A stretch of 64,000 nt of DNA from positions 1,540 through 65,539 of the forward strand of contig JABDQW010000041.1 of assembly GCA_013042055.1 (NCBI GenBank), read 5' to 3'. The stretch is from Gammaproteobacteria bacterium (GTDB taxonomy: Bacteria; Pseudomonadota; Gammaproteobacteria; SZUA-229). The position numbers and the translations under genes were made by a program. Position 1 is the first letter of the stretch; each line of letters begins with the position of its first letter. Shown piece by piece: positions 10,365 through 57,367 of this stretch. The notes under the pieces were generated by a model. The model ran no database searches, was not told the DNA's origin, and was given only the letters and a program-made list of their open reading frames with translations.

Positions 10365-11921
10365 ATGAAATCCCTGGGTGCGGTTGCCTGTGGCCATCCG
10401 CAAACCGCAGAAGCAGCGGAATTGATTCTAAAAGAAGGTGGGAATGCATTTGATGCCATAATCGCGGCATTCCTGATGTCATGTGTTGTCGAACCTGTGT
10501 TGGCCTCACTCGGTGGTGGTGGTTTTATGCTGGCTCATACCGCTGAACGGCGCGATGTCATTTATGACTTTTTTGCCCAGACACCGCGAAATCCTTTAGC
10601 ATCGGACAGGCTCGATTTCTATCCCATCCAGGCTGATTTTGGAGCGACGACTCAGGAATTCCACATAGGCCTGGCATCGGTTGCCACACCCGGTGCAGTC
10701 CGGGGCATATTCAGAATTCACCAGGACTTGGGTACTCTACCCATGACAGAACTTGTCCAGCCTGCAGTGGAGGCGGCACGTTATGGCGTGACCATGAGTG
10801 CTTTCCAAGCCTCGATACTGAAAATTATCGCGCCCATTTTGACCGCGACTGAACCAGTGCGACAGCAGTATCAGGGTCCGGAGCAGTCGGGCTCGCTGGT
10901 TAATAAGGGTGAATTATTCAAACAGTCACAGCTTGCGTATTTTCTAGAGGCGCTAGCCAGAGAAGGTAGCGAACTTTTCTATCAGGGTGAGATAGCCCAG
11001 GCGATATCGGATATGTGCACGCATGGTGGCGGCCAGTTGACTCGACAGGATTTGGCCAAGTACCAGGTCGAGCTGCGTCGCCCAGTCCGACTACGCTATC
11101 AACAGCACCATGTATTGACCAATCCCGCACCGTCCTGTGGCGGCACCTTGATCGCCTTCGCCTTGAGTTTGTTGGAGCACGTTGGTATCAACCGTTCTGA
11201 ATTTGGCTCAGCGGGACATTTACAGGTGCTGGCCAAGGTCATGCGACTGACGAACGAGGCACGTTTCCGGGCGCATTCAACCTCGTCTGAATCCATTGCG
11301 CTGCAACATTTACTAGACGCCAGGCTATTGAACGAATATCGGGAGAAAATCAGCGGTAACAGTCGCAGTCTACGCGGCACGACACACATGAGCGTGATGG
11401 ACTGCAACGGCAATGTTGCAGGACTGACGGCAAGCAATGGCGAAGGTTGTGGGCACATGGTTCCCGATACCGGCGTCATGCTGAATAATATGCTTGGTGA
11501 GGAAGATCTGAATCCCGATGGTTTTTATTGTTGGCCGGTCAATCAGCGCATGACTTCGATGATGGCGCCGACACTGGTGATTTCACCCCAGGGCAAAAAG
11601 ATCAGCCTGGGGTCGGGTGGTTCAAACCGCTTACGAACGGCAATATTGCAAGTCTTGGTCAACCTCATCGATTTCAACATGCCATTATACGATGCTGTTA
11701 ACCACCCGCGATTACACTATGAGAATGATTTGATCAGCATTGAGCCCGGCTTTAATGGCGATACCATCCAGACCCTGCTGGCAGAACACGAAAATCACAA
11801 GATCTGGCAGCAGCAAAACATGTTTTTCGGCGGTGTGCATGCGGTTTCCGAGCACCTGGGCCAGTTTAGCGGTGCCGGCGATCTGCGCCGCGCCGGTGTC
11901 GCTCGCGTTGTTGAGGTTTAG
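10365..11921 (+). CDS. Gamma-glutamyltranspeptidase-family Ntn hydrolase, with no signal peptide.
   Basis: Catalytic TTHMSVMD Thr nucleophile region and GGT-like glycine-rich motifs. 518 aa. The stop TAG is the first 3 nt of a MITE terminus. Confidence 0.8.
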   Translation: MKSLGAVACGHPQTAEAAELILKEGGNAFDAIIAAFLMSCVVEPVLASLGGGGFMLAHTAERRDVIYDFFAQTPRNPLASDRLDFYPIQADFGATTQEFHIGLASVATPGAVRGIFRIHQDLGTLPMTELVQPAVEAARYGVTMSAFQASILKIIAPILTATEPVRQQYQGPEQSGSLVNKGELFKQSQLAYFLEALAREGSELFYQGEIAQAISDMCTHGGGQLTRQDLAKYQVELRRPVRLRYQQHHVLTNPAPSCGGTLIAFALSLLEHVGINRSEFGSAGHLQVLAKVMRLTNEARFRAHSTSSESIALQHLLDARLLNEYREKISGNSRSLRGTTHMSVMDCNGNVAGLTASNGEGCGHMVPDTGVMLNNMLGEEDLNPDGFYCWPVNQRMTSMMAPTLVISPQGKKISLGSGGSNRLRTAILQVLVNLIDFNMPLYDAVNHPRLHYENDLISIEPGFNGDTIQTLLAEHENHKIWQQQNMFFGGVHAVSEHLGQFSGAGDLRRAGVARVVEV

Positions 11922-11961
11922 CCCGCATTTCTCCCGTGATCCTGGCGAGAAATGCGGACTA
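11919..11961. repeat. Minimal 43-bp hairpin version of MITE family 1 (TAGCCCGCATTTCTC...GAGAAATGCGGACTA).
   Basis: Left and right TIRs abut with almost no internal sequence. Confidence 0.6.
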
Positions 11962-12000
11962 CTCTGGCAAGCCCAAGATTTTGGTGAGAAATGTTGTTAG

Positions 12001-12050
12001 CCCTGATATTGCACGTAAAACCCAAATCCTTCATGCAGTATCCGGGTTAG
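12001..12050. repeat. Small palindromic repeat, family 3 copy.
   Basis: CCCTGATATTGCACG ... CATGCAGTATCCGGGTTAGC. Confidence 0.5.
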
Positions 12051-12273
12051 CAGATGGCCATCAGGCCGTGTTTGTATAGAAATCATCACCATCCTCCGGC
12101 TGGATCGAGGTGTAAAGTTTTCTGAAAAATGTAAGCCTGGTTTTACACTTTAGCCCCACTGGAATCAGTCGTGATATCGCCTAAGCTACTGATTTATATA
12201 AGTCCTATGAATTTCAGGCACGGATCCTGCCTCTAATTATGTGAAATGAGCTGAATTATATGGAGGTAGCGAA

Positions 12274-12447
12274 ATGAGCATAATCATTAATTTGTTCCTT
12301 ATGGCGTATTTGCTGGTAATGGTTGTACTCTCTATCCTGACCCTGTTCTGGGCGACGTTATTGATATTCAAGCCGCTGTCGACAACTAAAGAACGAACGG
12401 GTCGGGCAATGAGCATGATACCGGAACGAACTGGTTGCACCGAATAA
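12274..12447 (+). CDS. Small (57 aa) hydrophobic membrane peptide.
   Basis: An ATG ORF with a single TM segment, followed by a hairpin plus T-run terminator. The antisense 75-aa ORF in the track is judged spurious. Confidence 0.3.
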   Translation: MSIIINLFLMAYLLVMVVLSILTLFWATLLIFKPLSTTKERTGRAMSMIPERTGCTE

Positions 12448-12462
12448 AATTTCGGAGATAAC

Positions 12463-12500
12463 AAGCCGGCCTCAGAATCAAGCGGCCGGCTTTTTAAATG
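12463..12500 (+). terminator. Rho-independent terminator (AAGCCGGCC...GGCCGGCTTTTT).
   Basis: 9-bp GC stem followed by TTTTT. Confidence 0.55.
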
Positions 12501-12583
12501 TAGAGGCGACGCGCCGAGCGCTGGGCGTTCTCGAAGTCATTGACAACCCGCAATTCGCATCAAACTTCGCATATAATCAGAAT

Positions 12584-12895
12584 ATGCGATGTTTAATATT
12601 CCTGATCTGCGCAGCCGCCTTAACCGGCGGCTGTTCCATGTCAGTGACCTCTCCTACTGCCGAGAAAGTGGCATTGTACGATGATCGAGATGCCGTGCCG
12701 ACTGATTGTGAAGAGCTGGGTGAGGTGACGGCAAGTGTGTGTGCAAATACCACGCCCTGTCCAGCTGAAGTCATGAAGCGGGATATTCGTGAGAAAGCGT
12801 ACCTGGAATATGGCGCCGATGCGGTGTGGTTGGCCAATACTACTCTTGCTGGGACAGAAGTCGTAGGTTATGGCGTTGCCTACCTATGCAGGTAG
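12584..12895 (+). CDS. Small lipoprotein, paralogous to 21251..21589.
   Basis: Lipobox LTGGCS. Shared pattern C-x2-LG-x-V...GAD/GGD...Y-x-C with the other lipoprotein. Confidence 0.5.
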   Translation: MRCLIFLICAAALTGGCSMSVTSPTAEKVALYDDRDAVPTDCEELGEVTASVCANTTPCPAEVMKRDIREKAYLEYGADAVWLANTTLAGTEVVGYGVAYLCR

Positions 12896-12969
12896 CTGTG
12901 AGATCTAATGATCTCTGCGATGTAGCCGACGGTCCTGTCGAACCGTCGGATCCAAGCGAATAGCGATAA

Positions 12970-13611: not shown

Positions 13612-13794
13612 GGTAATTCCTCGGAGTTTATAGCAATAGTTGTGCAGCACGGTTTCAGCGTGCCTGCGCGCGTAATTTGGAGGGCGTATTTTGTTGTTTT
13701 TGGGAAAAAAAATAAAGGCTTTTCCTGCAATTTCGGCTTCGGGCTCGTTCTTTCCTATACTCTTGGTGTACCAAATTCATCAAGAGGATGTTCC

Positions 13795-14172: not shown

Positions 14173-14190
14173 GACCGCCAGTCATCGGGC

Positions 14191-14435
14191 TAGCCCGCAT
14201 TTCTCACTAGGATCACGGGAGCAGGCGCAGGATTCGTGTTCGTAAGCGCCGCTCTGGAGCGAAAAGCGTAGCAATAGCTACGGTTTGAGTGAAGAGCAAG
14301 CTCACGGACACGAAGACTAGCCTGAACCGTGATAGGCATGCTGGAAAACGCAATGTATTTTGATCATCCAGGTATTCTTCAAAGAGACCAATGCCTTATC
14401 AGAATCCTACGCCGCCTGGTGAGCAATGCGGGCTA
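14191..14435. mobile_element. MITE family 1, full copy (about 245 bp, perfect 20-bp TIR TAGCCCGCATTTCTCAC(C/T)AG).
   Basis: Read directly. The right-end TAG, read on the minus strand, is the stop codon of the HDOD gene. Confidence 0.8.
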
Positions 14436-15311
14436 GGAAGCGCCTGGGCTCTCCAGTGCCTGTATAATCGACTGTATCTGTTGTCTGGATTCTTCGATGA
14501 TTTCTGAGGCAGTCTCGTCTGTAATTTCGAGTCGCTTCATCGCAGGTATAGTCTCCCAATCCAGGTCAGTCGGGGGATGTGGCTCTTCGTTTTGAGAAAA
14601 CAGATTGGCAATCATAACTACATCACTGAGATTGGCTGGGCCAAAATGCATGCGATCGAGTATCTCATGTTCGTGGGCTGCTTTAATTGTGTCTTCATTA
14701 AAATTCCAGGTCTCAAGAATTTTGCGCCCGATGCTGCTGTGCCACTTCTTCATAATATCATCCAGCATACGGGGTTCGCTGAATAATACCGGATACTGTT
14801 CGGAACGTGTCAGAATGTAGTATTTGCCGATGTCATGGAGCAAGCCTGCGAGCATGGCTTCGTCCGGGTTGATCTTTGTCAGTTTTTTTGCAATGACATA
14901 CGATAAAGCACCCACATTCATGCTGTGGTGCCACAAGTCTTCCAGATACGGCCGCAGCACTTCCACCGAACTGGAATGCAGCAATTGGTCTACAGCAATC
15001 GCAACGGCTGTGTTGTATGCCATTTTGAATCCCATGCGCGTTACAGCCATGCGAATATCAGTGATTCTGGAGCCGGCGCCATTGACCATCGCTGAATTGG
15101 CGACTTTTAACAGGCGTGCGCTGAATATGGGATCAGATCCCACAACACGTGCAACATGCTCGGCGGTTACCTCAGGATCGGCCAGTGCATTCTTAATGCG
15201 TACCGCAACATCGGGAAATGCGGGGATTTCTAAGTTGCCACTGTTCAACTCCTCGCCCAGGTTTGTGACAAACTCAAATCCGCAATTAAATGCTTGCGTC
15301 GCTTCGTTCAT
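14433..15311 (-). CDS. HDOD-domain signalling protein.
   Basis: HDOD hallmarks (FPDVAVRI...ARLLKVANSA...GLLHDIGK). Confidence 0.7.
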   Translation of the reverse strand: MNEATQAFNCGFEFVTNLGEELNSGNLEIPAFPDVAVRIKNALADPEVTAEHVARVVGSDPIFSARLLKVANSAMVNGAGSRITDIRMAVTRMGFKMAYNTAVAIAVDQLLHSSSVEVLRPYLEDLWHHSMNVGALSYVIAKKLTKINPDEAMLAGLLHDIGKYYILTRSEQYPVLFSEPRMLDDIMKKWHSSIGRKILETWNFNEDTIKAAHEHEILDRMHFGPANLSDVVMIANLFSQNEEPHPPTDLDWETIPAMKRLEITDETASEIIEESRQQIQSIIQALESPGAS

Positions 15312-17942: not shown

Positions 17943-17993
17943 GCTGCGGGCTACTCCTGCGCCTGCTCCCGTGATTTTGGTGAGAAATGCAGT
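17943..17993. repeat. Degenerate, inverted fragment of the MITE family 1 left end.
   Basis: CCTGCGCCTGCTCCCGTGAT...GGTGAGAAATGCAG is the reverse complement of the element's first 40 bp. Confidence 0.5.
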
Positions 17994-19329: not shown

Positions 19330-19368
19330 ATCGGCACGTCTTACAGCAGCATATTGGGTTGGTGGCCT

Positions 19369-19778
19369 AGCCCGCATTTCTCACCAGGATCACGGGAGCA
19401 GGCGCCGGAACGAGCCCCCAGGTCTCACCAGATGAACGAGCCCTCACTTGATCTTTGAATCCACAGACCATTTTGCTCAGTCGGCAATACACAAGGTTAT
19501 TCCACTCCCTCCCAAAATGGTCTGTGAATCCAAATCTCGGCGTGATCATCTCGCCCCCAGGCAAGACCTGCGGGCTGGTGTTCGTAAGCGCCGCTCTGGA
19601 GCGAAAAACGTAGCCACAGCTACGGTTTGAGTGAAGAGCAAGCTTACGGACACGAAGACCAGCCTGAACCGTGATAGGCATGCTTTAATTACACCGTGTT
19701 TTTATGATCATTCGAGCTTTTTGACATTAAGCAATAACTTATCAATGTCCTACGCCGCCTGGTGAGAAATGCGGGCTG
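19369..19778. mobile_element. MITE family 1 copy carrying a nested insertion of about 170 bp, which is a second palindromic element.
   Basis: Canonical TIRs at both ends. An extra segment at 19406..19576 is bounded by its own inverted repeat (GAATCCACAGACCATTTT ... AAAATGGTCTGTGAATCC). Confidence 0.75.
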
Positions 19779-20383: not shown

Positions 20384-20417
20384 GATTCAACCTCCTATTT
20401 GTTTGTTGAGCTATAAT

Positions 20418-20652
20418 CCTAGATTCCGCAGTTGATCGCTATTACTTCTAGTCAATTCTATGATTATTGCACAGTTATGCAGTATTTGACGTTCACCCAA
20501 TGGGTGAGTCGCTACACAGTTTATCGCCGCCCCGCTAGCGCCATGGCGGCGTTGCAACTTTTGCCAAGGACGACGGCCATTAGCTGCAAGTCGCGCCTTG
20601 CCCTGACGCTAGAGGTGCAGCGCTAAATCTGTGTTCAACTGCGGAATCTAGG
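20418..20652. mobile_element. MITE family 2 (about 235 bp; TIR CCTAGATTCCGCAGTTGA ... TCAACTGCGGAATCTAGG).
   Basis: Near-identical second copy at 33368..33595. Confidence 0.8.
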
Positions 20653-21250
20653 ATAATTTGGTCCATTTATGACGACCGTACGATGGCATCTCGTATACAT
20701 TGATCCAGCCTCAGCACTCACCGTGCCCGATATGGATTGGCTAGCAAACGTTTGATTACAGGAATTCGTCGTCTGCGCAGCGCGAAATCAGGTCGGACCA
20801 TAGCATGGTTTATGCGCTATGTTGCTGCAAGATGATGAACATTCGCGCTTATGAAACGCAACGTCTTTATGTGCCTGAGCTGGCCTGTAACGAAAGCAAT
20901 CGTCCATCTTTACCAGCTACTTACAATGTTTCAAACAGCCAACTAAGATACGATCATAGAACACGTGGCCATTATGCCTTGGTTATCGCATGCGGTGGGC
21001 GAATTATATCGCACGACAATCGAATATAGAAGTTGAGAAAAATCGTTTGGCTGATTAACGTCGAGTGTTCATCACTCGGTTCAGTTGTTGATTTATGTAA
21101 TCTACGGGCGAAATGTATGATTGTCTTGGCGTTATTTACGTTAAAATACGCAACAAGCTGGACCGGGCGATTAAATGTAAATTATTGTCATTTCCAGTGG
21201 CTATACACATGTTCCTAATTAACATCCGTGTGATCAAAAACGTTGACAAT

Positions 21251-22628: not shown

Positions 22629-23693
22629 ATGACAAGAATATTGTCATTTCTGGTGCTTCTGCTGGTCTGGGTGCCCTCACAGGCGACTACTCATTGTGTA
22701 ATCCTGCAATATCATCACTTCAGTGATCAGACACCTGCCATAACGAGCGTCAGTCCGGCACAGTTTGATGATCATTTGGCCTATCTATCGACACACAAGT
22801 TCAATGTTCTGCCGTTACGTCAGGTTGTAGCCGCGCTCAGGCAAAATAAGACGCTGCCGGATCGTTGCGTCAGCCTAACCGTTGATGATGCTTACCAGTC
22901 TGTTTATACCAATGCATTTCCACGATTGCAGAAGCTGGGTTGGCCGCTGACAGTATTTGTCAATTCCGAGGCCGTCGACCGGGGGCTTGCTTCATACATG
23001 ACATGGGATCAGATGCGCGAATTATCATCACAGGGTGTGGTTTTTGAAAATCACGGTCATGGTCATATCCACATGATTCGCAAAAATAGTGCTGAAAGCG
23101 ATCAGGATTGGCGACAAAGGATAACGAATGACGTCAATACAGCGCAGCGAAGAATTAGCGAAGAAATTGGTGATGCGCCACAGCTATTTGCTTATCCGTA
23201 TGGTGAATTCAGTCCCGCCACAGCAGAAATTATTGATGCAATGGGTCTTGTTGGTTTTGGTCAGCAGTCTGGGCCGGCTTGGTCGGGGGCGGATTTTGCT
23301 GCACTACCGCGTTTCCCCATGGCGGCCAAGTACGCCGAACTAAAGAATTTCAGGATTAAAGTGAACACATTACCATTACCCGTTGTCGGGCTATGGCCGA
23401 AAGACCCACTGCTGGTTTTACAGCAGCGACGTCCAACATTGAAGCTCAAGCTCGTTGCAGGTGCCTATTCGAAAGCGGAATTACAATGTTATATCAATGG
23501 CAGCAGCGATGTCGCGATTAACTGGTCAAGAGATATTCCTGACCAGTTGACGGTCACGCCAAATTTTGATCTGCGCCCTGGAAGGCATCGGACCAATTGT
23601 ACGATGCCGTCGCCTGAGAAGGGTCGTTTTCACTGGTACAGCCATAACTGGTTTGTCCGAAATCCTGACGGTAGCTGGTACTCGGAGTACTAG
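22629..23693 (+). CDS. Polysaccharide deacetylase (CE4/NodB-homology) family protein.
   Basis: Signal peptide. TVDDAY, FENHGHGH and related CE4 motifs. The stop TAG is the first 3 nt of a MITE family 1 terminus fragment. Confidence 0.7.
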   Translation: MTRILSFLVLLLVWVPSQATTHCVILQYHHFSDQTPAITSVSPAQFDDHLAYLSTHKFNVLPLRQVVAALRQNKTLPDRCVSLTVDDAYQSVYTNAFPRLQKLGWPLTVFVNSEAVDRGLASYMTWDQMRELSSQGVVFENHGHGHIHMIRKNSAESDQDWRQRITNDVNTAQRRISEEIGDAPQLFAYPYGEFSPATAEIIDAMGLVGFGQQSGPAWSGADFAALPRFPMAAKYAELKNFRIKVNTLPLPVVGLWPKDPLLVLQQRRPTLKLKLVAGAYSKAELQCYINGSSDVAINWSRDIPDQLTVTPNFDLRPGRHRTNCTMPSPEKGRFHWYSHNWFVRNPDGSWYSEY

Positions 23694-23746
23694 CCCGCAT
23701 TTCTCTCCCTGGTATCTGACAAAGGATATGAGTCCGCGAACAACGC

Positions 23747-23800
23747 TAATGAAGTAAAAGAACCTTTATTTTTAGCTGTCTTATTTGCGTGTTTTGCGTT
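23747..23800. repeat. Fragment of the CGCAAA-type palindromic repeat (family 4).
   Basis: TTATTTGCGTGTTTTGCGTTTTTGGCGGAC, similar to 51262..51345 and 62581..62686. Confidence 0.4.
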
Positions 23801-23851
23801 TTTGGCGGACATATTTTCATGAGTCATTAGTGTCCTTGATGACCTTGCGGG

Positions 23852-26173: not shown

Positions 26174-27325
26174 TCATATATCCAGCTTTTGCAATATGAT
26201 TGTGGTCAATGATGCCGCAACAACAATGCTGACAATACTCGTAACCACAGCTGAGGTGGTTGCTTGGCCCACAGCCTGAGCACTGCGGCCACATTGTATG
26301 CCCCGCAGGCAGCCAGCCAGAGCTATCAAGACGCCATAAAGCGTTCCTTTCATCATGCCGACGGTAACGTGCGTGAAATTCAACGCGCGCAGGGTCTGCT
26401 GATAGTACTCGTAAACGCTCAGATCGAATACGGTAACGGCGACAAAGACGCCTGCAGCAATCCCGACCAGGCCAGCATACAAGGATAACAGGGGCATCAT
26501 TAGAGTCAGTGCCAGCAACCGTGGCATAACCAGATAGTCCATTGGAGAAATACCGAGCGTCTGGAAAGCATCGATCTCCTCATTGACCTGCATTGTGCCG
26601 AGCTCCGCGGCGTAAGCAGCTCCGGTACGGCCCGCCATGATGATAGCGGTCATTAGTGCGCCGACTTCCCTGACCATGGCAATGCCGACCAAGTCGGCAA
26701 CATATATTTGCGCGCCAAAGCGCTCGAGTTGCAAGGCGCCCATGTAGGCGAGAATCAGGCCAACAAGAAAGCTGATGAGCGAGACGATCGGCAGTGCCTT
26801 TGGCCCGACCTGTTGAATAATGTACAAAAGTTCGGAGACGGTGTATTGGGCTTCGCCTGTGACCAGGCGTGCCATCGATTTCAGTGATTCACCCAGAAAG
26901 TGGAGCGCAGCAGGAACTGCTTCGATAGTATCCAGCGTGACATTGCCAACATGGCTGAGCAGATTTTCCTTTTGGTCGCGTCTAGTCGTGTCTTTACTTG
27001 CAGACGAGGATGACGCCAGGTCGAGTAATTTGCGTACACCGGAGGGTAAGCCATCTGGGACGAACTGAAGCTGGCTGAGCTCGCAGCTGCGATACAATTT
27101 AGACAGAAATACTAGCAGCCCTGAGTCCCATCGGGTGATGCCGTCCGTGGAAAATGTGATCCGCTCGAGTTTGGAAGCCGATGCGAATTTCTTCATCACT
27201 GCTTCAACAGACGGCAGTTCATCTCGCAGACACCATGAACCACTAAAGACCAGCTGCAAGCTAACAGCATCCGTAGTCTTGAGCTCAAGGGTGCTATTGT
27301 TATGAGTATTGTCTTGTGCAGTCAT
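26174..27325 (-). CDS. ABC permease (MlaE-like) fused to an N-terminal STAS/MlaB-like domain.
   Basis: C-terminal MlaE-type permease. The N-terminal ~110 aa are STAS-like. The track's N-terminal extension is encoded by a MITE and was not counted. Confidence 0.7.
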   Translation of the reverse strand: MTAQDNTHNNSTLELKTTDAVSLQLVFSGSWCLRDELPSVEAVMKKFASASKLERITFSTDGITRWDSGLLVFLSKLYRSCELSQLQFVPDGLPSGVRKLLDLASSSSASKDTTRRDQKENLLSHVGNVTLDTIEAVPAALHFLGESLKSMARLVTGEAQYTVSELLYIIQQVGPKALPIVSLISFLVGLILAYMGALQLERFGAQIYVADLVGIAMVREVGALMTAIIMAGRTGAAYAAELGTMQVNEEIDAFQTLGISPMDYLVMPRLLALTLMMPLLSLYAGLVGIAAGVFVAVTVFDLSVYEYYQQTLRALNFTHVTVGMMKGTLYGVLIALAGCLRGIQCGRSAQAVGQATTSAVVTSIVSIVVAASLTTIILQKLDI

Positions 27326-27333
27326 AACGCAGC

Positions 27334-27547
27334 ATGCGGGCTGGTGTTCGTAAGCGCTGCTCTGGAGCGAAAAGCGTAGCCATTGCTGCGGTTTGAGTGA
27401 AGAGCAAGCGTAGGGACACGAAGACCAGCCTGAACCGTGATAGGCATGCTCAAATAACACACTGTATTTCTGATCATCCTAGCTTTTTCCGAAGGGACCA
27501 ATGCCTTATCAGTATTCTACGCCGCCTGGTGAGCAATGTGGGCTAGT
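27334..27547. mobile_element. MITE family 1 copy, truncated at the left (right 214 bp).
   Basis: Matches the internal and right TIR consensus. It abuts the mla operon start. Confidence 0.7.
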
Positions 27548-27980: not shown

Positions 27981-28118
27981 CGGTGTGGCGCACCATGCAT
28001 GCCGGGTACTGACCAGTGCTTAGCCCGCATTTCTCAACAGGCGGCGTATCGCGATGTCGCTAGAGATTTACATTGCGTATACTGAGCGGCTTTCACCTAT
28101 CCCAGCAAAGGCGAGCGG

Positions 28119-30441: not shown

Positions 30442-30683
30442 TGTGCTGGTTGCTCTATGCAGTTCAAGATTAATCGGTTGGCGTTCCTGGACCACGCTGC
30501 AGGTAGGCTGGCTTTGCCAGTCAGATACGCCTGTTCTCAATCCCGTCATCTTTGCTATCGCCGTGTTCGCGCATGCTAGCCAAAAAACAGGAGCGCGGAT
30601 TATATACTAAATGGAGACTTATTACGGCAGTTTTGCGTGTATTAACCGGCATTTAACTCGCAGTTGGGGCAGAAAATACGGGT

Positions 30684-30929
30684 TAGCCCGCATTTCTCAC
30701 CAGGATCACGGGAGCAGGCGCAGGATTCGTGTTCACAAGCGCTGCTCTGGAGCGAAAAGCGTAGCAATGGCTACGCTTTGAGTGAAGAGCGAGCTTGCGG
30801 ACACGAAGACCAGCCTGAACCGTGATAGGCATGCTCGAATAACACACTGTATTTTTGATCATCTGGCTATTCTCCATAGGATTAGTGCCTTATCAGTTTT
30901 CGACGCCGCCTGGTGAGAAATGCGGGTTA
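30684..30929. mobile_element. MITE family 1, full copy.
   Basis: Perfect TIRs TAGCCCGCATTTCTCACCAGG ... CCTGGTGAGAAATGCGGGTTA. Confidence 0.8.
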
Positions 30930-31031
30930 GGGCCGTGATTAGGTACGTAAACAGCCAGAAATTGGTGTTCTATGGTTGGAATTTGAGCATATCGCCGACG
31001 ATATTCGTTAGCCTGTGAAATAAAATGCCTT

Positions 31032-31409
31032 CTAGTGCTGGATCAGCGCGAAATCCGCCGTGGCCGTGGTTTTGTCGATATGAACCCGTATCTCGCAATA
31101 GGCGTTTTCCGCCGTGGGGTCATCGCCGCAAACACAGCCGGCCACGATTTCGGTGAAAAATACCCCCAGCGTGGCTTGAATGCTGTCTGAGTTCTGACTG
31201 GCGTTGATTATGGTGACCGAAACATCGTTGTCGTCAACGACACCGCAGCGCGTTACGGCTTTTTGTAGGGGCAGGCTACCTCTGGGCAGGTCCTCGATTT
31301 CACGCTTGAGCGCCGATTTCCACGATTCGTGCGGCCATTCATGGAGGGCTTCAGCGAGTTTTGGCAGTTTTGGCTTGGTTTTTTGCGTCATCGTCCTGGC
31401 ACGTTTCAA
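31032..31409 (-). CDS. Hypothetical protein.
   Basis: ORF whose start overlaps the upstream gene's stop (ATGA). No recognised motif. Confidence 0.4.
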   Translation of the reverse strand: MKRARTMTQKTKPKLPKLAEALHEWPHESWKSALKREIEDLPRGSLPLQKAVTRCGVVDDNDVSVTIINASQNSDSIQATLGVFFTEIVAGCVCGDDPTAENAYCEIRVHIDKTTATADFALIQH

Positions 31410-33366: not shown

Positions 33367-33367
33367 A

Positions 33368-33595
33368 CCTAGATTCCGCAGTTGATCGCTATTACTTCTA
33401 GTCAACTCTATGACTATTCGAAAAGTTATGCAGTATTTGACGTTCACCCAACGGGAGAGTCGCTACACAGTTTATCGCCGCCCCTCTAGCGGCGTTGCAA
33501 CTTTTGCTAAGGACTATGGCCATTAGCTGCAAGTCGCGCTTTGCCCTGACGCTAGAGGTACAGCGCTAAATCTGCGTTCAACTGCGGAATCTAGG
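33368..33595. mobile_element. MITE family 2, second copy.
   Basis: About 90% identical to 20418..20652 over its full length. Confidence 0.8.
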
Positions 33596-33947
33596 TTAAA
33601 CGAGCGAGAATAATGCGTGAAATATTAGGGGCCTGGGGCGAATGGCGCTCACTTAAGCAAAACATAGACTTGCGAGGAACGAAGCAATTTCTTATGAGGT
33701 AACGCAAAGTTGCAAAGATCGCCACGCTACCGCTCGCGATGACGCGATTTTGCGCCTGAGCGCTTGCGTAATGGCCCAACCATGCACATGATGTGCCACG
33801 AGCCAGGGGGGATACGCGTCGAGTTCATTGTTCCGGCTTGAAATCATGGCTTCAAATCAGACAAGATTTTCATTATGATCAATAAATCTCGTTTTGTCTG
33901 GAACTGGGGGATCTGATAACGCGGCGTATTTTTCGGAGGTTGGTTCG

Positions 33948-37849: not shown

Positions 37850-39295
37850 TTATGTATAGCTTTCAAAGTCCCATTCATGTACGGGCTTGTTCGATTGTTG
37901 ATTGTGATAGTAACTCTTTGTCAGTAGCTGCATGTCACGGCCGTTAAGCTCGACGAATTTGCGCTGCCATTGTGTACCCGTCTGCCCGCTTTCGATGCGC
38001 GCTTGGATTATGCCCAGGTAGAAACTGCAGTCGGCGTCTGATATGCCGAGTTTGCTCAGTCCGGTTTCAGCTTCGGATAACAGTTTGTCTAATACCAGAG
38101 TTCGAATAGTGTATTTGTTTCCGTCTGCCCAAAGCAATCGATTACTCAGACCCACTTGTGCTGATCGGTAGAAATTATCTTTAGTTTCGGCAAATGTTAG
38201 CGTCGATTCGGGCGGGTTTACGCAGGTTGCATAGTACTCCACAAGTCCATAATAGAAAGCGATGTTCGCAATATTGTCGACCGTGCTGGCCGCGCTTGAC
38301 ATCGTGCGATGTTCGATTCTCAAGTGAGCTGTGCCATCGTCATCGAAGCCAATGAGCGGTCGATTCCAGCGCCATATCGTGCCATTGTGCAGTCGTAGGT
38401 GGTTCAATTTCTCAGCATCACTGTCGTAGCTCACCGGAAGTAGCACGGGATAGTGCTCAAGATTCTCACTAAAGCATTCGAATAAGGATTCCCGTGCATA
38501 CTGACTACCAAAAGTGACACGATGTAGCGGTCCACTGGCGGCGCCGCCAATGCCACCAATGTCGACGGATTGCTCAAACACCGGTATGCGAGTTTCATAC
38601 CATAGATCCCGATTGAACATAAAAGGTGCATTAGCACCAACTGCAACTAGGGGCGCCGAGAGTACCATCGATGCATTGTAATAACGCACCGCTCTATCTT
38701 GCGGCGTTTGTAAATGTATTTGCAGTGATGTTGACGCAGCTTCGAGCATCACATCCTTGTGTAAGACCTCAAGGTGCTCATTGCCATTGATGTTCAAGCT
38801 GATGGTTTTACCCTTGCGTTGCCTCAGGACCTGCTCGTTAAGGGCCTTGTAGCGGTCCAGCGAAGAAATGTTCTGCAGCGACAGATCGCTGTTGGTCAAT
38901 GTCGGCAATATACCGATACCCAGCATGTTGCAGCCGATATCATTTGATGTTTGCTTGCACTGTTCCCACAGTTTTCGAAGTTGCTCGTCAAAAATACGCA
39001 ATAGATCCTTATTAAAAGGCTGTGGATCTGCATTGAGTTCAATGTTGAACTTGGCCAATTCAGGAAACAAATAAGGATTGTTAGCATGTTCAAGAAATGC
39101 TTCGTTTCGTGGACAAGGCGAAGCGTCATCATCGATCAGCCATGCTTCCAGTTCATAACCTGCTACGGGGTCTTTTGTCGACAAGGCATGATTGTTAAAC
39201 CATTCTGCAAGAATTTCTGTTTCTTGTTTCAGGTGTTTCTGATATTGGTGATAATCGCTTTTTACGAAACGACTATATTTTATTTCTTCACCCAT
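37850..39295 (-). CDS. Glutamate-cysteine ligase family (GshA/GCS2-like) carboxylate-amine ligase.
   Basis: Loose matches to GCL blocks (LQIHLQ; LSAPLVAVGANAPF). The stop abuts the AstE-like gene start. The assignment is tentative. Confidence 0.45.
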   Translation of the reverse strand: MGEEIKYSRFVKSDYHQYQKHLKQETEILAEWFNNHALSTKDPVAGYELEAWLIDDDASPCPRNEAFLEHANNPYLFPELAKFNIELNADPQPFNKDLLRIFDEQLRKLWEQCKQTSNDIGCNMLGIGILPTLTNSDLSLQNISSLDRYKALNEQVLRQRKGKTISLNINGNEHLEVLHKDVMLEAASTSLQIHLQTPQDRAVRYYNASMVLSAPLVAVGANAPFMFNRDLWYETRIPVFEQSVDIGGIGGAASGPLHRVTFGSQYARESLFECFSENLEHYPVLLPVSYDSDAEKLNHLRLHNGTIWRWNRPLIGFDDDGTAHLRIEHRTMSSAASTVDNIANIAFYYGLVEYYATCVNPPESTLTFAETKDNFYRSAQVGLSNRLLWADGNKYTIRTLVLDKLLSEAETGLSKLGISDADCSFYLGIIQARIESGQTGTQWQRKFVELNGRDMQLLTKSYYHNQQSNKPVHEWDFESYT

Positions 39296-43722: not shown

Positions 43723-43970
43723 TAGCCCGTATTTCTCATCAGGATCACGGGAGCAGGCGCAGGATTCGTGTTCGTAAGCGCCGCTCTGGAGCGAAAAGCG
43801 TAGCCATAGCTACGGTTTGAGTGAAGAGCAAGCTTACGGACACGAAGACTAGCCTGAACCGAGATAGGCATGCTTGAATTACACACTGTATTTTTAATCA
43901 TCCCGACTTTTCTCCAAAAGGACCAATGCTTTCTCTGTTTTCTGCGCCGCCTGGTGAGAAATACGGGTTA
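43723..43970. mobile_element. MITE family 1, full copy between ampD and coq7.
   Basis: TIRs TAGCCCGTATTTCTCATCAGG ... CCTGGTGAGAAATACGGGTTA. The right-end TAA, read on the minus strand, is the coq7 stop codon. Confidence 0.8.
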
Positions 43971-44606
43971 GATCCAATACGTGCTGCCTGTCATGACTTT
44001 TGACATTGCCTGCATCAGCTTTTTCATCGGGAACGGTAAGGATTTTCCGCCATGATCGAGCGCCGTTGTGGCATGTTTGGCCTCATCGATTTTCATTTGC
44101 TCGAGTATAGCGCGGCTGCGACCGTCACAAGCAGGTAGTTTCTCGAGATGCGAATCAAGGTGCCGGACAACCTGATGCTCTGTCTCCGCGAGGAAGCCCA
44201 GGTTCCATCTGTCACCAAGTGCGCCGGCAAAAACACCAATGGCAAAAGAGCCGGTATACCATAGTGGGTTGAGAAGGCTGGTTCGTTCACCCAGTTCTCG
44301 CAATCGGTTTTGTGTCCATACCAGGTGATCGTTTTCTTCGAGTGCGGCTTGTTCCAGTTTTTGGCGAACCGCATCATTCTGCGCAGTGAGCGACTGTCCC
44401 TGGTACAAGGCTTGTGCTGAAACTTCGCCTGCGTGGTTAATTCGCATCAATCCGGCGACGTGCCTGTTTTCCGCTGCATCGAGCTCGCATTCTTCGATGC
44501 TTTGCGCAGGATAAGGGCGATGCGTGGCCACAGGTTTGCCGGCAATGGTACGCAATGCGGTGTCGGTATGCATCAGAAATCGGTCAAATAGGCTGTAGTG
44601 TCTCAT
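43968..44606 (-). CDS. coq7: Demethoxyubiquinone hydroxylase Coq7 (di-iron carboxylate).
   Basis: Ferritin-like ExxH motifs (EENDHL, ETEHQVVRHL, DEAKHA). Confidence 0.85.
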   Translation of the reverse strand: MRHYSLFDRFLMHTDTALRTIAGKPVATHRPYPAQSIEECELDAAENRHVAGLMRINHAGEVSAQALYQGQSLTAQNDAVRQKLEQAALEENDHLVWTQNRLRELGERTSLLNPLWYTGSFAIGVFAGALGDRWNLGFLAETEHQVVRHLDSHLEKLPACDGRSRAILEQMKIDEAKHATTALDHGGKSLPFPMKKLMQAMSKVMTGSTYWI

Positions 44607-46606: not shown

Positions 46607-46680
46607 TGGGGAATCGTCTAACGGCAGGACAGCGGACTCTGACTCCGCCAATCTAGGTTCAAATCCTAGTTCCCCAGCCA
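46607..46680 (+). tRNA. tRNA-Gln (anticodon CUG).
   Basis: Cloverleaf: 7-bp acceptor stem TGGGGAA/TTCCCCA, anticodon loop CTCTGAC, T-loop TTCAAAT, 3' GCCA. Similar to E. coli tRNA-Gln. Confidence 0.75.
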
Positions 46681-48402: not shown

Positions 48403-48786
48403 TCTAAAAGCCGGGCAATGCTGCGTTTCTCACCGGTGGGGGAAATGTCACAAAGATGATTAATAACAAATATTAGCCGCGAAAAACGCAAAGGACGCAA
48501 ACTATTCAGAGCGTGAACGCATACTGTCGCCAAGCGAATCGGGCACATGTTGGACGAATGCTGTCACGTGCGGTTGGGAGCACCGAGCGCGACGAACTGG
48601 GTCTGCATGGACCAACTGCGGGGAACTGTTCGGTGTTTGCGACCGCAATACATTACACTTTCGCGTTATTTGCGTTTTTCGCGGCTAATGCAATATTTGA
48701 ATCCAGCATGCAATGTGTGGATTAGACAGGTACAATTTCCCTCCAAGATAATACGAGTCAATTCAAGCGAGTGAGAGGCGCACACT

Positions 48787-49454: not shown

Positions 49455-49505
49455 TGTTTTTTACGCAAAGGACGCAAAGGCGCGAACAACGCAAAGGTTT
49501 TTCTT
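49455..49505. repeat. CGCAAAGG-type short repeat (family 4) downstream of rpiA.
   Basis: ACGCAAAGGACGCAAAGGCGCGAACAACGCAAAGG. Confidence 0.4.
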
Positions 49506-51229: not shown

Positions 51230-51261
51230 CCCCCTGATTACTGAATGGGGATAGGAGGCCG

Positions 51262-51345
51262 CGAAAAACGCCAATAACGCAAAAGGGCCTTTGTTTTTGT
51301 GGTTTTCTGTTTGCGTGCTTTGCGTTATTTGCGGACGTGTTTGCC
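51262..51345. repeat. Family 4 palindromic element (about 85 bp) between the convergent ilvA and ygfA genes.
   Basis: CGCGAAAAACGCCAATAACGCAAAAGGGCCTTTGTTTTTG...TTTGCGTTATTTGCGGACG. Inverted copy at 62581..62686. Confidence 0.55.
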
Positions 51346-51346
51346 A

Positions 51347-51937: not shown

Positions 51938-51964
51938 AGCAGCGAAATGAATAGAAGGTGCCTC

Positions 51965-52152
51965 CAAAAGTGCCGTAGCAACTACTGCTAACCTTGAACC
52001 AGAGGTTCAGGTGGGGACAGCGATCATACCTCAGGCTTCCCGCTCATGGCGGTATTGCACATAGTATAACCAGCGCGACTCCCCTGGTTAGTAGTTAAGG
52101 CTCAAGGGTTTTTCAGTTTGCTTACGCACACCCTAGAGACACCCAAACCTAA
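51965..52152 (-). ncRNA. ssrS: 6S RNA.
   Basis: The reverse complement contains UCUCUAGGGUGUGCGUAAGC...CCCUUGAGCC...CACCUGAACCUCUGGUUCAAGG, matching E. coli 6S blocks UCUCUGAGAUGUUCGCAAGC / CCCCUGAGCC / CACCUUGAACCAAGGGUUCAAGG. It sits between zapA and ygfA. The ends are approximate. Confidence 0.65.
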
Positions 52153-52744: not shown

Positions 52745-52894
52745 AGCTTTTTCTAATTGTTATCGGGGTGGTGCCGGTCGCTGGATTAAATAAATCGCAT
52801 AAGCATCCGCTGGATGCAAACACATCAGTCCTAATACTAGGACGACAACGCCCTTGGGTCAAATGAAACTGCCTGTTGCTTTTACTGACTAAGC

Positions 52895-52916
52895 TAGGGC
52901 CTGTTAACAGGCCCTA
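52895..52916. repeat. Perfect 22-bp palindrome TAGGGCCTGTTAACAGGCCCTA, upstream of ygfB.
   Basis: An identical copy at 53512..53533 immediately follows ygfB, and its TAG is the ygfB stop. Confidence 0.6.
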
Positions 52917-52943
52917 CGATAACTGTCGTGATAGAATCAGTGT

Positions 52944-53513
52944 ATGCATCAGTTGCCGGAAATCGCCGCCGTAGAAGAATTGCTTTACAGAATTGACGCC
53001 AACATGGGCGCTGCAGAGGCCCATGGAGCGCTCTGTGGTATGCTTTGTGCCCGCGGGACTGTCGAACTGTCTGAATGGGTCGATCACGTCATTGGAGAGC
53101 AGGATCACGGTGGCCGATTGTTACACGATGTCGTTCATGAGTTGTCGGAACTGCATCAATCGACGCTTGAAATGATAAATGATGCAGGCGGTGAATTCAG
53201 GCTGTTGTTACTCGATGACGATGATGCCTTGGCGGAGCGAGTGGAGACACTGGCGGCGTGGTGTCAGGGGTTTATTTATGGGCTCGCAGCGGGTGGTATC
53301 CGACAGAACAGTGAGTTGCCCGATGATGCAGCGGAACTGTTGAAGGATATGGTCGAAATTTCCCGTGCTAGTCATGAGGTGGATAATATGGCGGTAGAGA
53401 TCGAGGAAGAGGACGAAGTTGCTTATATGGAAATCGAGGAATATGTGCGTATGGGTACACTGCTGATCTATGAGGAACTACAGCCACTACAGTCGACTCA
53501 AACGATCCATTAG
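52944..53513 (+). CDS. ygfB: UPF0149-family protein YgfB.
   Basis: YgfB-like sequence. Conserved position upstream of pepP. Confidence 0.75.
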   Translation: MHQLPEIAAVEELLYRIDANMGAAEAHGALCGMLCARGTVELSEWVDHVIGEQDHGGRLLHDVVHELSELHQSTLEMINDAGGEFRLLLLDDDDALAERVETLAAWCQGFIYGLAAGGIRQNSELPDDAAELLKDMVEISRASHEVDNMAVEIEEEDEVAYMEIEEYVRMGTLLIYEELQPLQSTQTIH

Positions 53514-53533
53514 GGCCTGTTAACAGGCCCTAG
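53512..53533. repeat. Second copy of the 22-bp palindrome TAGGGCCTGTTAACAGGCCCTA.
   Basis: Identical to 52895..52916. Confidence 0.6.
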
Positions 53534-53558
53534 GGTAAACGAGCAAGAATCAAGATTA

Positions 53559-54860: not shown

Positions 54861-54879
54861 GCGCTATGACTGAAAAAAC

Positions 54880-56106
54880 GTGAATGTGAGTGAGTCAGCG
54901 ATAGATTGTGATGTGTTGATCATAGGCGGCGGGCTGGTCGGCGCCAGTTTGGCGTGCGCTCTAGAGGACAGCGGGCTCTCCATCCGAGTTGTCGAGGCCG
55001 TTCCGCTACAGTCCCAGGTACAACCCAGTTATGATGACAGAACAGTCGCCTTGTCGTGGGGAAGCCGCTGTATTTTTGAGGGCATGGGGATTTGGGCGAT
55101 CCTTGCCGATCGCGCGGAAGCAATCACCACGATTCACATTTCTGATAAGGGCCATTTCGGTGCGACACGGTTACGCAACGAAGAAGAGCAGGTCGAGGCG
55201 TTGGGATATGTCGTAGAAAACCGCGTGCTTGGTGAAGCCTTATACCAGCGTTTGCAACAAAATAGCAGGCTCAGGCTCCATTGTCCTGCGCGTTTAGTCA
55301 GAATTGACCAACAAGGCGATGCAGTAGTCGCCATTGTCGACGAGAACCAAACCCAGCAGGCATTCCGTGCGCGACTGATGGTGGCAGCGGACGGCGTGAT
55401 TTCACAGGTGCGTGACATGCTGCATATCGGTAGCAGCGTACAGGATTATGGCCAGAGCGCGGTAATTGCCAATGTTACGCCTGGTATCAAGCATAATAAT
55501 ACCGCCTATGAGCGTTTTACCGATGCGGGCCCAATTGCGCTCCTTCCGATGACACAAAACCGATGTTCGCTTGTCTGGACCGTACCGACTGCTCAGGCTG
55601 CGGAACTGATGCAGATGAATGATGCGGATTTTCTACTGCTGCTTCAACAACGTTTCGGTTTTCGTCTTGGGCAATTACGCAGAGTCGGTAGCCGCCATGT
55701 CTACCCGCTGAAGCTGATTGAAACGACCCAAATCGTGCGCAATCGCGTAGTGATTGTCGGTAATGCCGCACATGCTGTTCATCCGGTTGCAGGGCAGGGT
55801 TTCAATCTCGCTCTCAGGGACATCGCTATTCTTTCCGAGCTGGTAGCAGCATCACCAGATGTGGGTGACAGCAGGTTGCTGCAGACTTACGTTGAACAAC
55901 GGCAGCATGACGCTAGACGCGTTTATCGGTTTACCGATAGTTTGATAAAAATATTCTCCAACAACTATGCACCACTGGGCCATCTCAGAGCCGCGGGTCT
56001 GGTCGCGGTCGGATTGATACCACCCCTGCGTCATCAGCTGGCACGTATGAGCATGGGGCTCAGTGGTCGTTCATCTGAAATGGGTCGCAGGGCCGGGCGT
56101 GTCTGA
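54880..56106 (+). CDS. ubiH: 2-octaprenyl-6-methoxyphenol hydroxylase (flavin monooxygenase).
   Basis: GGGLVGASLA FAD motif and a GNAAH...G.G.N DG-like site. In ygfB-pepP-ubiH-ubiI synteny. Confidence 0.85.
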   Translation: MNVSESAIDCDVLIIGGGLVGASLACALEDSGLSIRVVEAVPLQSQVQPSYDDRTVALSWGSRCIFEGMGIWAILADRAEAITTIHISDKGHFGATRLRNEEEQVEALGYVVENRVLGEALYQRLQQNSRLRLHCPARLVRIDQQGDAVVAIVDENQTQQAFRARLMVAADGVISQVRDMLHIGSSVQDYGQSAVIANVTPGIKHNNTAYERFTDAGPIALLPMTQNRCSLVWTVPTAQAAELMQMNDADFLLLLQQRFGFRLGQLRRVGSRHVYPLKLIETTQIVRNRVVIVGNAAHAVHPVAGQGFNLALRDIAILSELVAASPDVGDSRLLQTYVEQRQHDARRVYRFTDSLIKIFSNNYAPLGHLRAAGLVAVGLIPPLRHQLARMSMGLSGRSSEMGRRAGRV

Positions 56107-57286
56107 ATCAGATATCAGACACTACGATGTCGTTATCGCCGGGGGCGGCATCACGGGTTTGACGCTGGCCGCGGCCCTGCGCGACACAAGCTTGCGCATC
56201 GCGATCATCGATCAAAATCAACCTGTCGCTGTTAGCGATGAATACTCGTTGCGTGTTTCCGCGATTAACCACGCTGCCTTGCGGCTGTTCGATGAGGTTG
56301 GCGCCTTTGAAGGTATGGTTAAGCTGCGTGTTTCCCCGTTTCGCGAAATGCACGTCTGGGATTCGACTGGGGTCGGGCAAATACATTTCGATTCGGCGGA
56401 GCTTGGATTGGATACGCTCGGCTACATTATAGAAAATAATGTCATCCAACACGCATTGCTGGCCGTGATTGAACAGGCTGATACCATCGATTGGCTGTGT
56501 CCTGCCAAAATCGCATCGCTTGAATTGAATCACAGTCTGAAGCGAGTCGACTTGGACGGTGGAAAAAGCTTAACGGCGCATTTGGTGGTGGGTGCTGACG
56601 GTGCGAACTCGCTCGTGCGCCAAGCGATGTGCATCGTACTGCTGCGCAGACCTTATAAACAACAGGCTATTGTTTGCACCGTCGCTACAGAATATGATCA
56701 TCAGCAAACAGCATGGCAGTGTTTCTTACCCACCGGTCCGTTGGCGTTGTTGCCGCTTCAAAATGGCCAGTGTTCTGTAGTCTGGTCATTGGATCAAGCT
56801 GAAGCTGAGACCATTTTGGCGCTTGATAATGCGGCCTTCGCAGCCAGGCTCGAACAGGCGTTCGAGTACCGTTTGGGTTCAGTAAAAGCCGTGTCCTCAA
56901 GAGCGATGTTCCCGCTGGGACATGGCCATGTTGATCGTTACGTACAACCGGGTCTGGCCTTGCTCGGGGACGCGGCGCACACAATTCATCCGCTCGCCGG
57001 GCAAGGCGCTAACCTGGGTATTAGTGATGCGGCGTGCTTGGCTAAGGTGATCAGCGAAGCCCTGCAGGCGCGCCGACGTTGGAGTGCGCTGTACACGCTG
57101 CGAAAGTATGAGCGCAGCCGCAAAGGCGCCAATCAACTGATGGAGGCATCCATGACCACTTTCAAGTATCTGTTCGGTAATGACAACCCGTTTTTGGCGG
57201 AATTGCGCAACGCCGGTTTGAATCTGGTTGACCATGCCGCACCAGTCAAGCAGATCTTGATCAAACGGGCATTAGGAGGGATCTAG
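56099..57286 (+). CDS. ubiI: 2-octaprenylphenol hydroxylase UbiI/VisC.
   Basis: GGGITGLTLA, GDAAH. Probably a GTG start overlapping the ubiH stop; the track extends to 56063. The stop TAG is a MITE family 1 terminus fragment. Confidence 0.8.
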   Translation: MSESDIRHYDVVIAGGGITGLTLAAALRDTSLRIAIIDQNQPVAVSDEYSLRVSAINHAALRLFDEVGAFEGMVKLRVSPFREMHVWDSTGVGQIHFDSAELGLDTLGYIIENNVIQHALLAVIEQADTIDWLCPAKIASLELNHSLKRVDLDGGKSLTAHLVVGADGANSLVRQAMCIVLLRRPYKQQAIVCTVATEYDHQQTAWQCFLPTGPLALLPLQNGQCSVVWSLDQAEAETILALDNAAFAARLEQAFEYRLGSVKAVSSRAMFPLGHGHVDRYVQPGLALLGDAAHTIHPLAGQGANLGISDAACLAKVISEALQARRRWSALYTLRKYERSRKGANQLMEASMTTFKYLFGNDNPFLAELRNAGLNLVDHAAPVKQILIKRALGGI

Positions 57287-57367
57287 CCCGCATTTGTCAC
57301 GCGAAATGTCTGGATATTATTGTTCTGAAAGGTGTAGGATTGCGCTTCACAATCAACGCTATCTGCC

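Follow-up and report, generated by a model that had tools for sequence, protein, structure and literature searches.

A family of short inverted-repeat elements

The stretch of DNA analysed here, 64,000 nucleotides of contig JABDQW010000041.1 (positions 1,540 to 65,539 of the forward strand) from the Gammaproteobacteria bacterium assembly GCA_013042055.1 and referred to below as the window, contains many copies of a short repeat with inverted ends and an internal hairpin. The locus raises the question of what kind of element this is, how it moves, and what the hairpin is for. An earlier note, made from the sequence alone, had described a MITE (miniature inverted-repeat transposable element) of about 245 bp with perfect 20-bp terminal inverted repeats (TIRs), probably mobilised in trans, in which the hairpin might act as a terminator or small RNA. 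The analysis below indicates that this family, here called family 1, is in most respects an ordinary MITE and is unusual in a single conserved part, the hairpin, which has been under long-term selection for its structure on the plus strand and probably serves the element itself rather than the neighbouring genes.

Fourteen matches to the terminal motif TAGCCCGCATTTCTCACCAG with no more than three mismatches were found in the window, compared with 0.01 expected, and they included every coordinate at which the earlier note had placed a copy or fragment. The inventory comprised five hairpin-bearing copies and at least six terminal fragments. Four full copies and a truncated one beginning at 27344 aligned with each other across the core, both in the direct-repeat analysis and by blastn, which also recovered short pieces of the termini, and the covariance model R1 identified exactly five hairpin cores (14210-14337, 19546-19679, 27322-27445, 30703-30830, and 43742-43869), all five of them on the plus strand. 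The flanks of the copies were unrelated, which indicates independent insertions rather than a single duplicated segment, and the family was not limited to the window, as a 24-mer from the core was found in at least 79 stretches from at least 8 species-representative metagenome-assembled genomes (MAGs). Neither of the two simpler accounts that the earlier note had raised, a repeat confined to these copies or a duplicated segment, agrees with these results.

The element proper was 240-241 bp long, with the left boundary at CCCGCATTTCTC and the right boundary at GAGAAATGCGGG. The TIRs were about 18 nt (CCCGCATTTCTCACCAGG) and imperfect in most copies, with a column identity of 97-98% across 54 copies. 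Within each unit the left TIR was directly abutted by a 128-nt imperfect hairpin, followed by a spacer of about 75-80 nt, which was conserved in length and not in sequence, and then by the right TIR. The inverted termini and the unit described previously were real, but the TAG that had been counted as the first three nucleotides of a 20-bp repeat belongs to the duplicated target. The only open reading frame (ORF) in the element was a minus-strand frame of 49-72 codons. As the earlier note had held, the elements were non-coding and there was no transposase in the window: Pfam searches of the 40 largest ORFs returned housekeeping functions only, including adk, an EF-G paralogue, mla genes, ilvA, gcvT/P, ubiH-like genes, pepP, and rpiA.

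Target site and insertion at stop codons

Elements from the window, the 79 genome loci, and 120 metagenome loci were pooled, and flank statistics were calculated for 113 of them. Both flanking tetramers had the sequence YTAR in 80 of the 113 elements, and the two were identical in 58. For the non-palindromic tetramers (TTAG and CTAA) there were 13 direct pairs and no inverted pairs, and the left and right tetramers agreed in their outer bases (Fisher P = 1e-7 at position 1, P = 6e-11 at position 4). The direct non-palindromic pairs and the agreement of the outer bases indicate that the TAG is part of a 4-bp YTAR target-site duplication (TSD). CTAG was preferred over TTAG and TTAA, which were in turn preferred over CTAA. 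Outside the tetramer the flanks showed no conservation, and the copies, at 79 or more genome loci and in 120 or more metagenome stretches, thus lay in unrelated surroundings. In one case a filled site (L013 in MAG_Ve_Sed_22, TTAG-element-CTAG) could be compared with the orthologous empty site in a related genome (L075 in MAG HOU_bin.0136), which contained a single CTAA. No clean empty site was found for the copies in the window; the syntenic loci L073, L070, and L076 were too diverged in the relevant intergenic regions. Duplication of TA only, as by an IS630-like insertion sequence (IS) with CTAG as its target, was excluded by the flank contingency tables, in which the outer bases of the tetramer were duplicated too. 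A conserved CGGG to the left of the window copies, which had hinted at insertion of the element into its own ends, was absent in the larger set.

A gene 3' end was located within 80 bp of 38 of the 64 copies, and at 17 of the 128 element ends the TAR of the TSD was the stop codon of an ORF of at least 100 aa. Genes in the window with their stop codon in a TSD were an HDOD gene, COQ7, a polysaccharide deacetylase gene, the gamma-glutamyltranspeptidase gene (ggt), and a monooxygenase gene. Because YTAR contains TAG or TAA, surviving copies often lie exactly on a stop codon that is restored when the target is duplicated. What had been reported as a "constant position at gene 3' ends" is therefore a common position and not a constant one, and it is largely explained by the stop codons within the target sequence.

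Distribution and variants

All of the hosts identified with the core 24-mer were uncultured Gammaproteobacteria, some of them labelled Thiotrichales, Thiotrichaceae, or Ectothiorhodospiraceae. The collected loci did not include the window's own genome, and the closest relative among the matches listed was MAG HOU_bin.0136, with approximately 80% nucleotide identity in syntenic genes. A search with the TIR alone yielded at least 120 metagenome stretches. No match was found in the plasmid collection or in 5,426 complete E. coli genomes (blastn, word size 11), and the TIR was present in no viral contig searched.

The family included several length variants. A 405-bp composite form, in which a related MITE is nested, was found in the window and at five loci from three MAGs (L010, L056, L059, L072, and L079), making it a recurrent subfamily; the nested MITE, 160-170 bp long, has related TIRs and was also found standing alone. 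Another variant, 166 bp in length, was without positions 34-100, and others were 303-307 bp and 361 bp, while micro-elements of 26-60 bp were hardly more than the two TIRs. As several MITE families share one pair of ends, they are presumably moved by one transposase.

Two further arrangements were observed. At 656-1403 of locus L139 a YceI-family gene was located between two micro-elements (approximately 60 bp and 26 bp), both of which overlie a neighbouring gene's stop codon; the arrangement is composite-like in appearance. A sister family with the TIR CCCGGATAYTGCATGAAGG and YTAR flanks, consisting mostly of micro-elements, was present in the window at 6654-6698, 7433-7451, and 12004-12047 (three matches to the TIR compared with 0.03 expected). 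A full 245-bp copy with this TIR and CTAG flanks was found at 1408-1652 of locus L152.

Conservation of the internal hairpin

A single long, imperfect hairpin was predicted for about positions 19-146 of the element, with a folding energy of -119 kcal/mol (z = -9), compared with -111 for the minus strand. The short hairpin GCGTAGC-AAT-AGCTACG that the earlier note had pointed out is real and is the sequence-conserved apex of this much longer structure. Within a single genome, pairwise divergence was 3.7% for positions 1-145, 24% for positions 146-220, and 2.8% for the right TIR, and values between genomes were similar.

Copies recovered through the core 24-mer were too alike for base pairing to be tested, and the search with the TIR alone brought in deeply diverged clades. 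In a MAFFT alignment of 39 sequences, changes on both sides were found in 28 of the 39 pairs, compared with 9.9 +/- 2.1 in shuffled controls and 7-16 in slid registers. In a more diverged set recovered with R1 and aligned by fitting to that model, double changes were found in 33 of the 37 pairs (216 cells compared with 76 +/- 8). The parts conserved in sequence across clades were the apex CGTAGC-N4-GCTACG, an AAGA bulge, and the base GGAT...ATAGG. Among the non-Watson-Crick cells, 89 were G.U and 24 were A.C, and this excess indicates that selection acted on the fold of the plus strand in single-stranded form, whether as RNA or as top-strand DNA. The architecture was also preserved: in almost every clade the right TIR ended 84-97 nt (mostly 96-97 nt) past the hairpin, and the same arrangement was found under the different TIR CCCGGATAYTGCATGAAGG, where R1 gave the full L152 copy a score of 74 bits.

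The distribution of polymorphism provides information on when this selection acts. Shared polymorphism per site was 1.0 in the hairpin and 8.8 in the spacer, making it 8.5-fold rarer in the hairpin, while singletons were only 2-fold rarer (0.37 per site compared with 0.77 in the spacer; the left TIR, at 0.89, was near the spacer rate). That the deficit was mainly in shared polymorphism indicates that the constraint acted mostly along the transposing lineages and not on each resident copy, which is the prediction of a cis-acting requirement for propagation. The residual 2-fold deficit of singletons leaves some room for a function at individual loci.

Search for a mobilising transposase

No transposase was found near the TIRs in approximately 1.1 Mb of related loci, and across 600 kb of the genome loci no ORF recurred save the frames through the MITE itself. 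A parent IS was sought among large ORFs with a solo TIR beside them and between TIRs paired at 0.7-4 kb in metagenome loci, and every candidate proved to be a housekeeping or otherwise ordinary gene or a gene bracketed by micro-elements. The cognate transposase that the earlier note had suggested looking for elsewhere was thus found neither in the window nor in these loci, which indicates that the partner is rare, absent, or has different ends. The elements are presumably mobilised in trans, and the partner may belong to an IS5-, IS701-, or IS1380-like family, judging by the length of the duplication and the CC with which the ends start.

The same note had proposed ends of the IS200/IS605 or IS630 type, a proposal not supported by the 4-bp YTAR duplication or by the orientation of the copies relative to GC skew, which was 49:44 and showed no bias. 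This ratio also excluded a replication-strand bias, which had been considered because all five window copies were on the plus strand.

Function of the hairpin

Taken together, these results are best explained by a non-autonomous MITE family that targets YTAR and is moved in trans, and in which the hairpin most likely acts in cis for the element and does not serve the neighbouring genes; we consider this explanation probable. A transposase supplied in trans would move the elements by a 4-bp staggered cut at YTAR, as in IS5, and insertion would duplicate the tetramer and so regenerate any stop codon within it. The hairpin would be the cis-acting part that lineages must retain in order to continue propagating, with, for example, the apex palindrome CGTAGC-N4-GCTACG presented to the transposase or to a host factor, and it would probably not be a device for adjacent genes.

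Several observations weigh against this explanation. As no autonomous partner was found, we can only infer the transposase family and the mobilisation in trans. Deletion variants of 166 bp without the left arm and apex were common in metagenomes, and their abundance indicates that the full hairpin is not strictly required for mobility. The approximately 2-fold deficit of singletons hints at selection after insertion, in other words at a function at individual loci, and the wobble bias on the plus strand would also fit an RNA. The orientation bias relative to host genes, described below, would not be expected of a signal that acts in cis for transposition alone. Lastly, the alignment in which 33 of the 37 pairs had double changes leans towards structure because it was fitted to R1.

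A stronger form of the same idea is that the 128-nt plus-strand hairpin is an obligatory cofactor or recognition structure for transposition, either as RNA or as top-strand DNA, with the apex recruiting the transposase. We find this doubtful. If true, there would be a class of mobile, non-coding elements in which the order TIR, hairpin, 96-nt spacer, and TIR is fixed and is retained under different TIR types, possibly without any linked transposase gene.

Along the lines of the terminator role suggested in the earlier note, the hairpin might act in RNA read through from the upstream host gene. There it could terminate the transcript, stabilise its 3' end, or be processed by RNase III/E, and functions of this kind have been reported for ERIC and Correia elements. 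The RNAs of MITEs are known RNase substrates (PMC10969869). The frequency of copies close to gene 3' ends, the stability of the fold on both strands, the G.U bias of a single-stranded fold, and the deficit of singletons, which suggests constraint after insertion, are all consistent with such a role. However, transcription from adjacent genes entered the element at the right end in 45 cases and at the left end in 20, and where the surrounding genes were in tandem the element was antisense in 17 cases and sense in 4 (P = 0.007). Host read-through would therefore produce mostly minus-strand transcripts, while the wobble pairs favour the plus strand, and this mismatch weighs against a terminator or a 3' untranslated region (UTR) element. 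In addition, in the one copy scanned (30500-31100) no stem followed by a U-tract was found on either strand, a run of five T being located about 25 nt past the hairpin, and the excess conservation was mostly in shared and not in private polymorphisms. A role in host RNA thus appears unlikely, and a terminator finds no support in the copy scanned or in the orientation of the copies.

It is less likely still that the family is a mobile small-RNA gene, in which the hairpin is transcribed independently from the plus strand, antisense to the host genes, and the RNA either has a regulatory function or assists the transposase as a cofactor. Covariation with a plus-strand wobble bias, the antisense orientation, and the sequence conservation of the apex and the AAGA bulge across clades are all consistent with such a gene. 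The RNA would be an undescribed one, as no Rfam family matched: apart from a 6S RNA and a tRNA there were no hits in the window at the gathering score, and there were none at E <= 10 on 30600-31000 (Rfam 15). On the other hand, only the 18-nt TIR separates the variable flank from the hairpin, which leaves no space for a conserved promoter, and no sigma-70-like promoter was found on either strand of the copy scanned (30500-31100).

The minus-strand ORF raises the question of whether the element encodes a small protein. This frame, a 59-aa ORF (MIKNTVCYSSMPITVQ...VRNAG) with its stop codon in the TSD, was open in clades A, B, and D, had an ATG, with a GGAG some 10 nt upstream when the consensus was inspected by eye, and was co-oriented with the host genes. 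In the composite copy the nested 165-bp insert was in frame, giving a 104-aa ORF at 19367-19681 on the minus strand. Gene callers had made at least 236 clusters of "hypothetical proteins" from this ORF. These database matches were all 49-124 aa long, none longer, and domain-free with one exception, and no transposase C-terminus was found among them. Within the family there were 114, 52, and 55 substitutions at codon positions 1, 2, and 3, and between clades 15/17/20, 17/23/24, and 11/16/18, so there was no excess at third positions in either comparison. Furthermore, the common polymorphisms were non-synonymous (Cys/Gly and Gly/Ser), the exact internal ATGCCTATC context at the start of the 49-aa ORF was absent from 28 of the 54 copies, and clade C had in-frame stop codons. 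A coding function was rejected on these grounds as very improbable; we treat the ORF as non-coding and its persistence as a curiosity.

Least probable of all is a REP/RAYT-type or IS200/IS605-derived (PATE) single-strand element or a dispersed segmental duplication, as the resemblance of the 26-60-bp micro-elements at gene ends to REP hairpins and the top-strand structural bias are set against a true 4-bp duplication of variable YTAR sequence, the 18-nt TIRs, the even orientation relative to GC skew, and the unrelated flanks at every copy.

Copies and fragments in the window

Of the five hairpin-bearing copies, all on the plus strand, three were canonical. The first, 239 bp at 14194..14432 (R1 149.4 bits), is bounded by a CTAG duplication at 14190-14193 and 14433-14436, and the HDOD gene (14433-15311, minus strand) takes its stop codon from the right TSD. 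The second, 240 bp at 30687..30926 (141.5 bits), has TTAG on both sides, a non-palindromic direct TSD, and is located between two minus-strand genes, so that it is antisense to both. The third, 242 bp at 43726..43967 (149.7 bits), has the flanks CTAG and TTAG; COQ7 (43968-44606, minus strand) has the right TSD as its stop codon, and the start of ampD is 7 nt to its left.

The copy that had been listed as a full one at 19369..19778 does belong to family 1, but it is the composite form, 405 bp at 19371..19775 with the flanks CTAG and CTGA (97.6 bits), in which the related MITE of about 160 bp is nested at approximately 19415-19574, at about position 43 of the family-1 element. The copy listed at 27334..27547 as left-truncated is indeed 5'-truncated (27344..27542, 94.1 bits), and more specifically it descends from a composite element, as it shares the junction ...ATGCGGGCTG|GTGTTCG with the composite copy (19368). 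Its right TIR is intact and is followed by CTAG. This copy is located upstream of mlaE. The mechanically called mlaE ORF (26174-27460, minus strand) is 428 aa long, the MlaE domain begins at residue 214, and the residues before it extend into the MITE copy, so that translation probably starts further downstream.

The remaining members were shorter. At 11922..11958 on the minus strand there is a 37-bp micro-element, an internal-deletion derivative in which 28 nt of the left end are fused to the terminal 15 nt of the right one. This micro-element lies directly on the stop codon of ggt, and short-read contigs with the window's ggt gene stop within about 40 bp of that codon, at the micro-element. 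A left-end fragment at 17955..17993 on the minus strand corresponds to approximately positions 7-42 of the element with 94% identity. The supposed terminus-only fragment at 23691 is a family-1 left end, but it belongs to a complete 155-bp element on the plus strand (23694..23848; CTAG-CCCGCATTTCTC ... CCTTGCGGG-TTAG), the interior of which is unrelated and the left TSD of which is the stop codon of the polysaccharide deacetylase gene. A right end without a left one, inverted and with TTAG before it (CCCGCATTTCTCAACAGGCGGCGTA), was found at 28024..28048 on the minus strand, and a terminal remnant of about 27 bp (CCCGCATTTGTCACGCGAAATGTCTGG) at 57287..57313 on the plus strand, on the stop codon of the FAD-monooxygenase gene (56063-57286). 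A degenerate right-end fragment of about 64 bp at 3792..3855 on the minus strand, just past the stop codon of an SPFH gene, was absent from the earlier list.

Other features of the window

A second MITE family was represented by two copies, at 20417-20657 and 33367-33602, which were 92-95% identical and had the TIR CCTAGATTCCGCAGTTGATC and 5-bp AT-rich duplications (ATAAT; TTAAA). The first 9 nt match the left inverted repeat (IRL) of ISEcp1, CCTAGATTCTACGT, an element with 5-bp direct repeats (PMC6061673), and this family is thus probably an IS1380-family derivative. Short dispersed repeats of the form GCCGCGAAAAACGC(A/C)AA... occurred at 23720-23758, 48476-48501, 49466-49495, 51245-51283, and 62589-62627 and may be another small repeat family; the first of these is inside the 155-bp element at 23694-23848, where it is palindromic with GCGTTTTTGGCGGAC. 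A REP-like perfect palindrome, TAGGGCCTGTTAACAGGCCCTA, was found at 52895-52922 and 53511-53538, 616 bp apart, flanking an ORF at 52944-53513.

The sole Rfam and ARAGORN hits in the window were the 6S RNA at 51957-52142 on the minus strand (84.5 bits) and tRNA-Gln(CTG) at 46607-46680 on the plus strand. A 90-bp tandem duplication (8273-8452, 81% identical) was located within an EF-hand protein gene at 7674-8486. A 481-aa ORF on the minus strand at 37850-39295, between an AstE/AspA-like gene and a nucleotidyl-transferase gene, had no confident Pfam domain, the only match being to GCS2 (E = 2.5e-4).

Relationship to known elements and significance

MITEs are short elements (approximately 50-800 bp) without a transposase gene. 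Family 1 has the length, the TIRs, the target-site duplication with a filled and empty pair, and the many copies in unrelated flanks that are characteristic of them. An autonomous partner that shares its TIRs was found neither in the window nor in approximately 1.1 Mb of loci.

The likeness to Correia and ERIC elements that had been drawn earlier is apt in kind. The ERIC elements, or IRUs, of the Enterobacteriaceae and Vibrionaceae are 127-bp imperfect palindromes, and like family 1 they are non-coding and intergenic, are present in tens to hundreds of copies, are conserved across species, vary in length by internal insertions and deletions, contain spurious ORFs, and fold into a long hairpin. 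ERIC elements have been described further in Hulton 1991 and in Wilson and Sharp 2006. There is no sequence similarity between the two (blastn against the complete E. coli genomes gave no match), family 1 is twice the size, and it duplicates 4-bp YTAR while ERIC duplicates TA. In ERIC the hairpin is the whole element, whereas that of family 1 is internal, asymmetric, and abuts one TIR. Effects of ERIC on mRNA stability have been reported (PMC10969869).

The Correia/NEMIS elements of Neisseria are likewise TIR-bounded MITEs, 100-200 bp long, with internal-deletion subtypes and with no transposase identified in the host genome. They are very dense, and family 1, with a copy or fragment about every 5-6 kb, reaches a similar order of density. 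Correia elements duplicate TA and carry promoters and an IHF site (PMC10969869), while family 1 has a YTAR duplication, no promoter-like site in the copy scanned, and a covarying internal hairpin. Placement downstream of ORFs is shared with QMITE2 of Coxiella, which is found mainly just downstream of ORFs and has transcripts predicted to form stable stem-loops (PMC10969869), and with other 3'-UTR MITEs. The TSD of QMITE2 is 7-9 bp, and no covariation-supported internal hairpin has been reported for it. Family 1 is set apart from ERIC, Correia, and QMITE2 by its YTAR duplication, its covarying asymmetric hairpin, and the preservation of architecture and length across two TIR types.

Comparison with IS families gave partial likenesses. 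IS5 inserts at and duplicates the 4-bp sequence 5'-YTAR-3', with a bias to non-coding DNA (PMC5009759), and family 1 follows the same target rule. Ends of IS5 (IS5 family, IS5 group), which reportedly begin GGAAGGTGCGAA..., are unlike CCCGCATTTCTC, and no IS5-like transposase with family-1 TIRs was found in the window or the loci scanned. The ends of IS1380-family elements start with CC, and their duplications are 4-5 bp. The family-1 TIR shares only a loose pattern with that of ISEcp1, and no cognate gene was found. Duplications made by IS701 are exactly 4 bp (PMC2266710), as in family 1, but the end consensus of that family, ---YACT-Y--YR, was unmatched and again no cognate gene was found.

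The family has practical consequences for genomics, as its copies break short-read assemblies and have given rise to 236 or more clusters of spurious "hypothetical proteins" in public databases; with a model of the element, the annotation of these uncultured Gammaproteobacteria could be cleaned. The YTAR rule offers a mechanistic account of MITEs that lie exactly on stop codons. Finally, a covarying hairpin next to a free-running spacer within one selfish element is an unusually clean contrast, and it allows one to ask what the propagation of a MITE needs beyond its TIRs, and whether that need is at the level of RNA or of single-stranded DNA.

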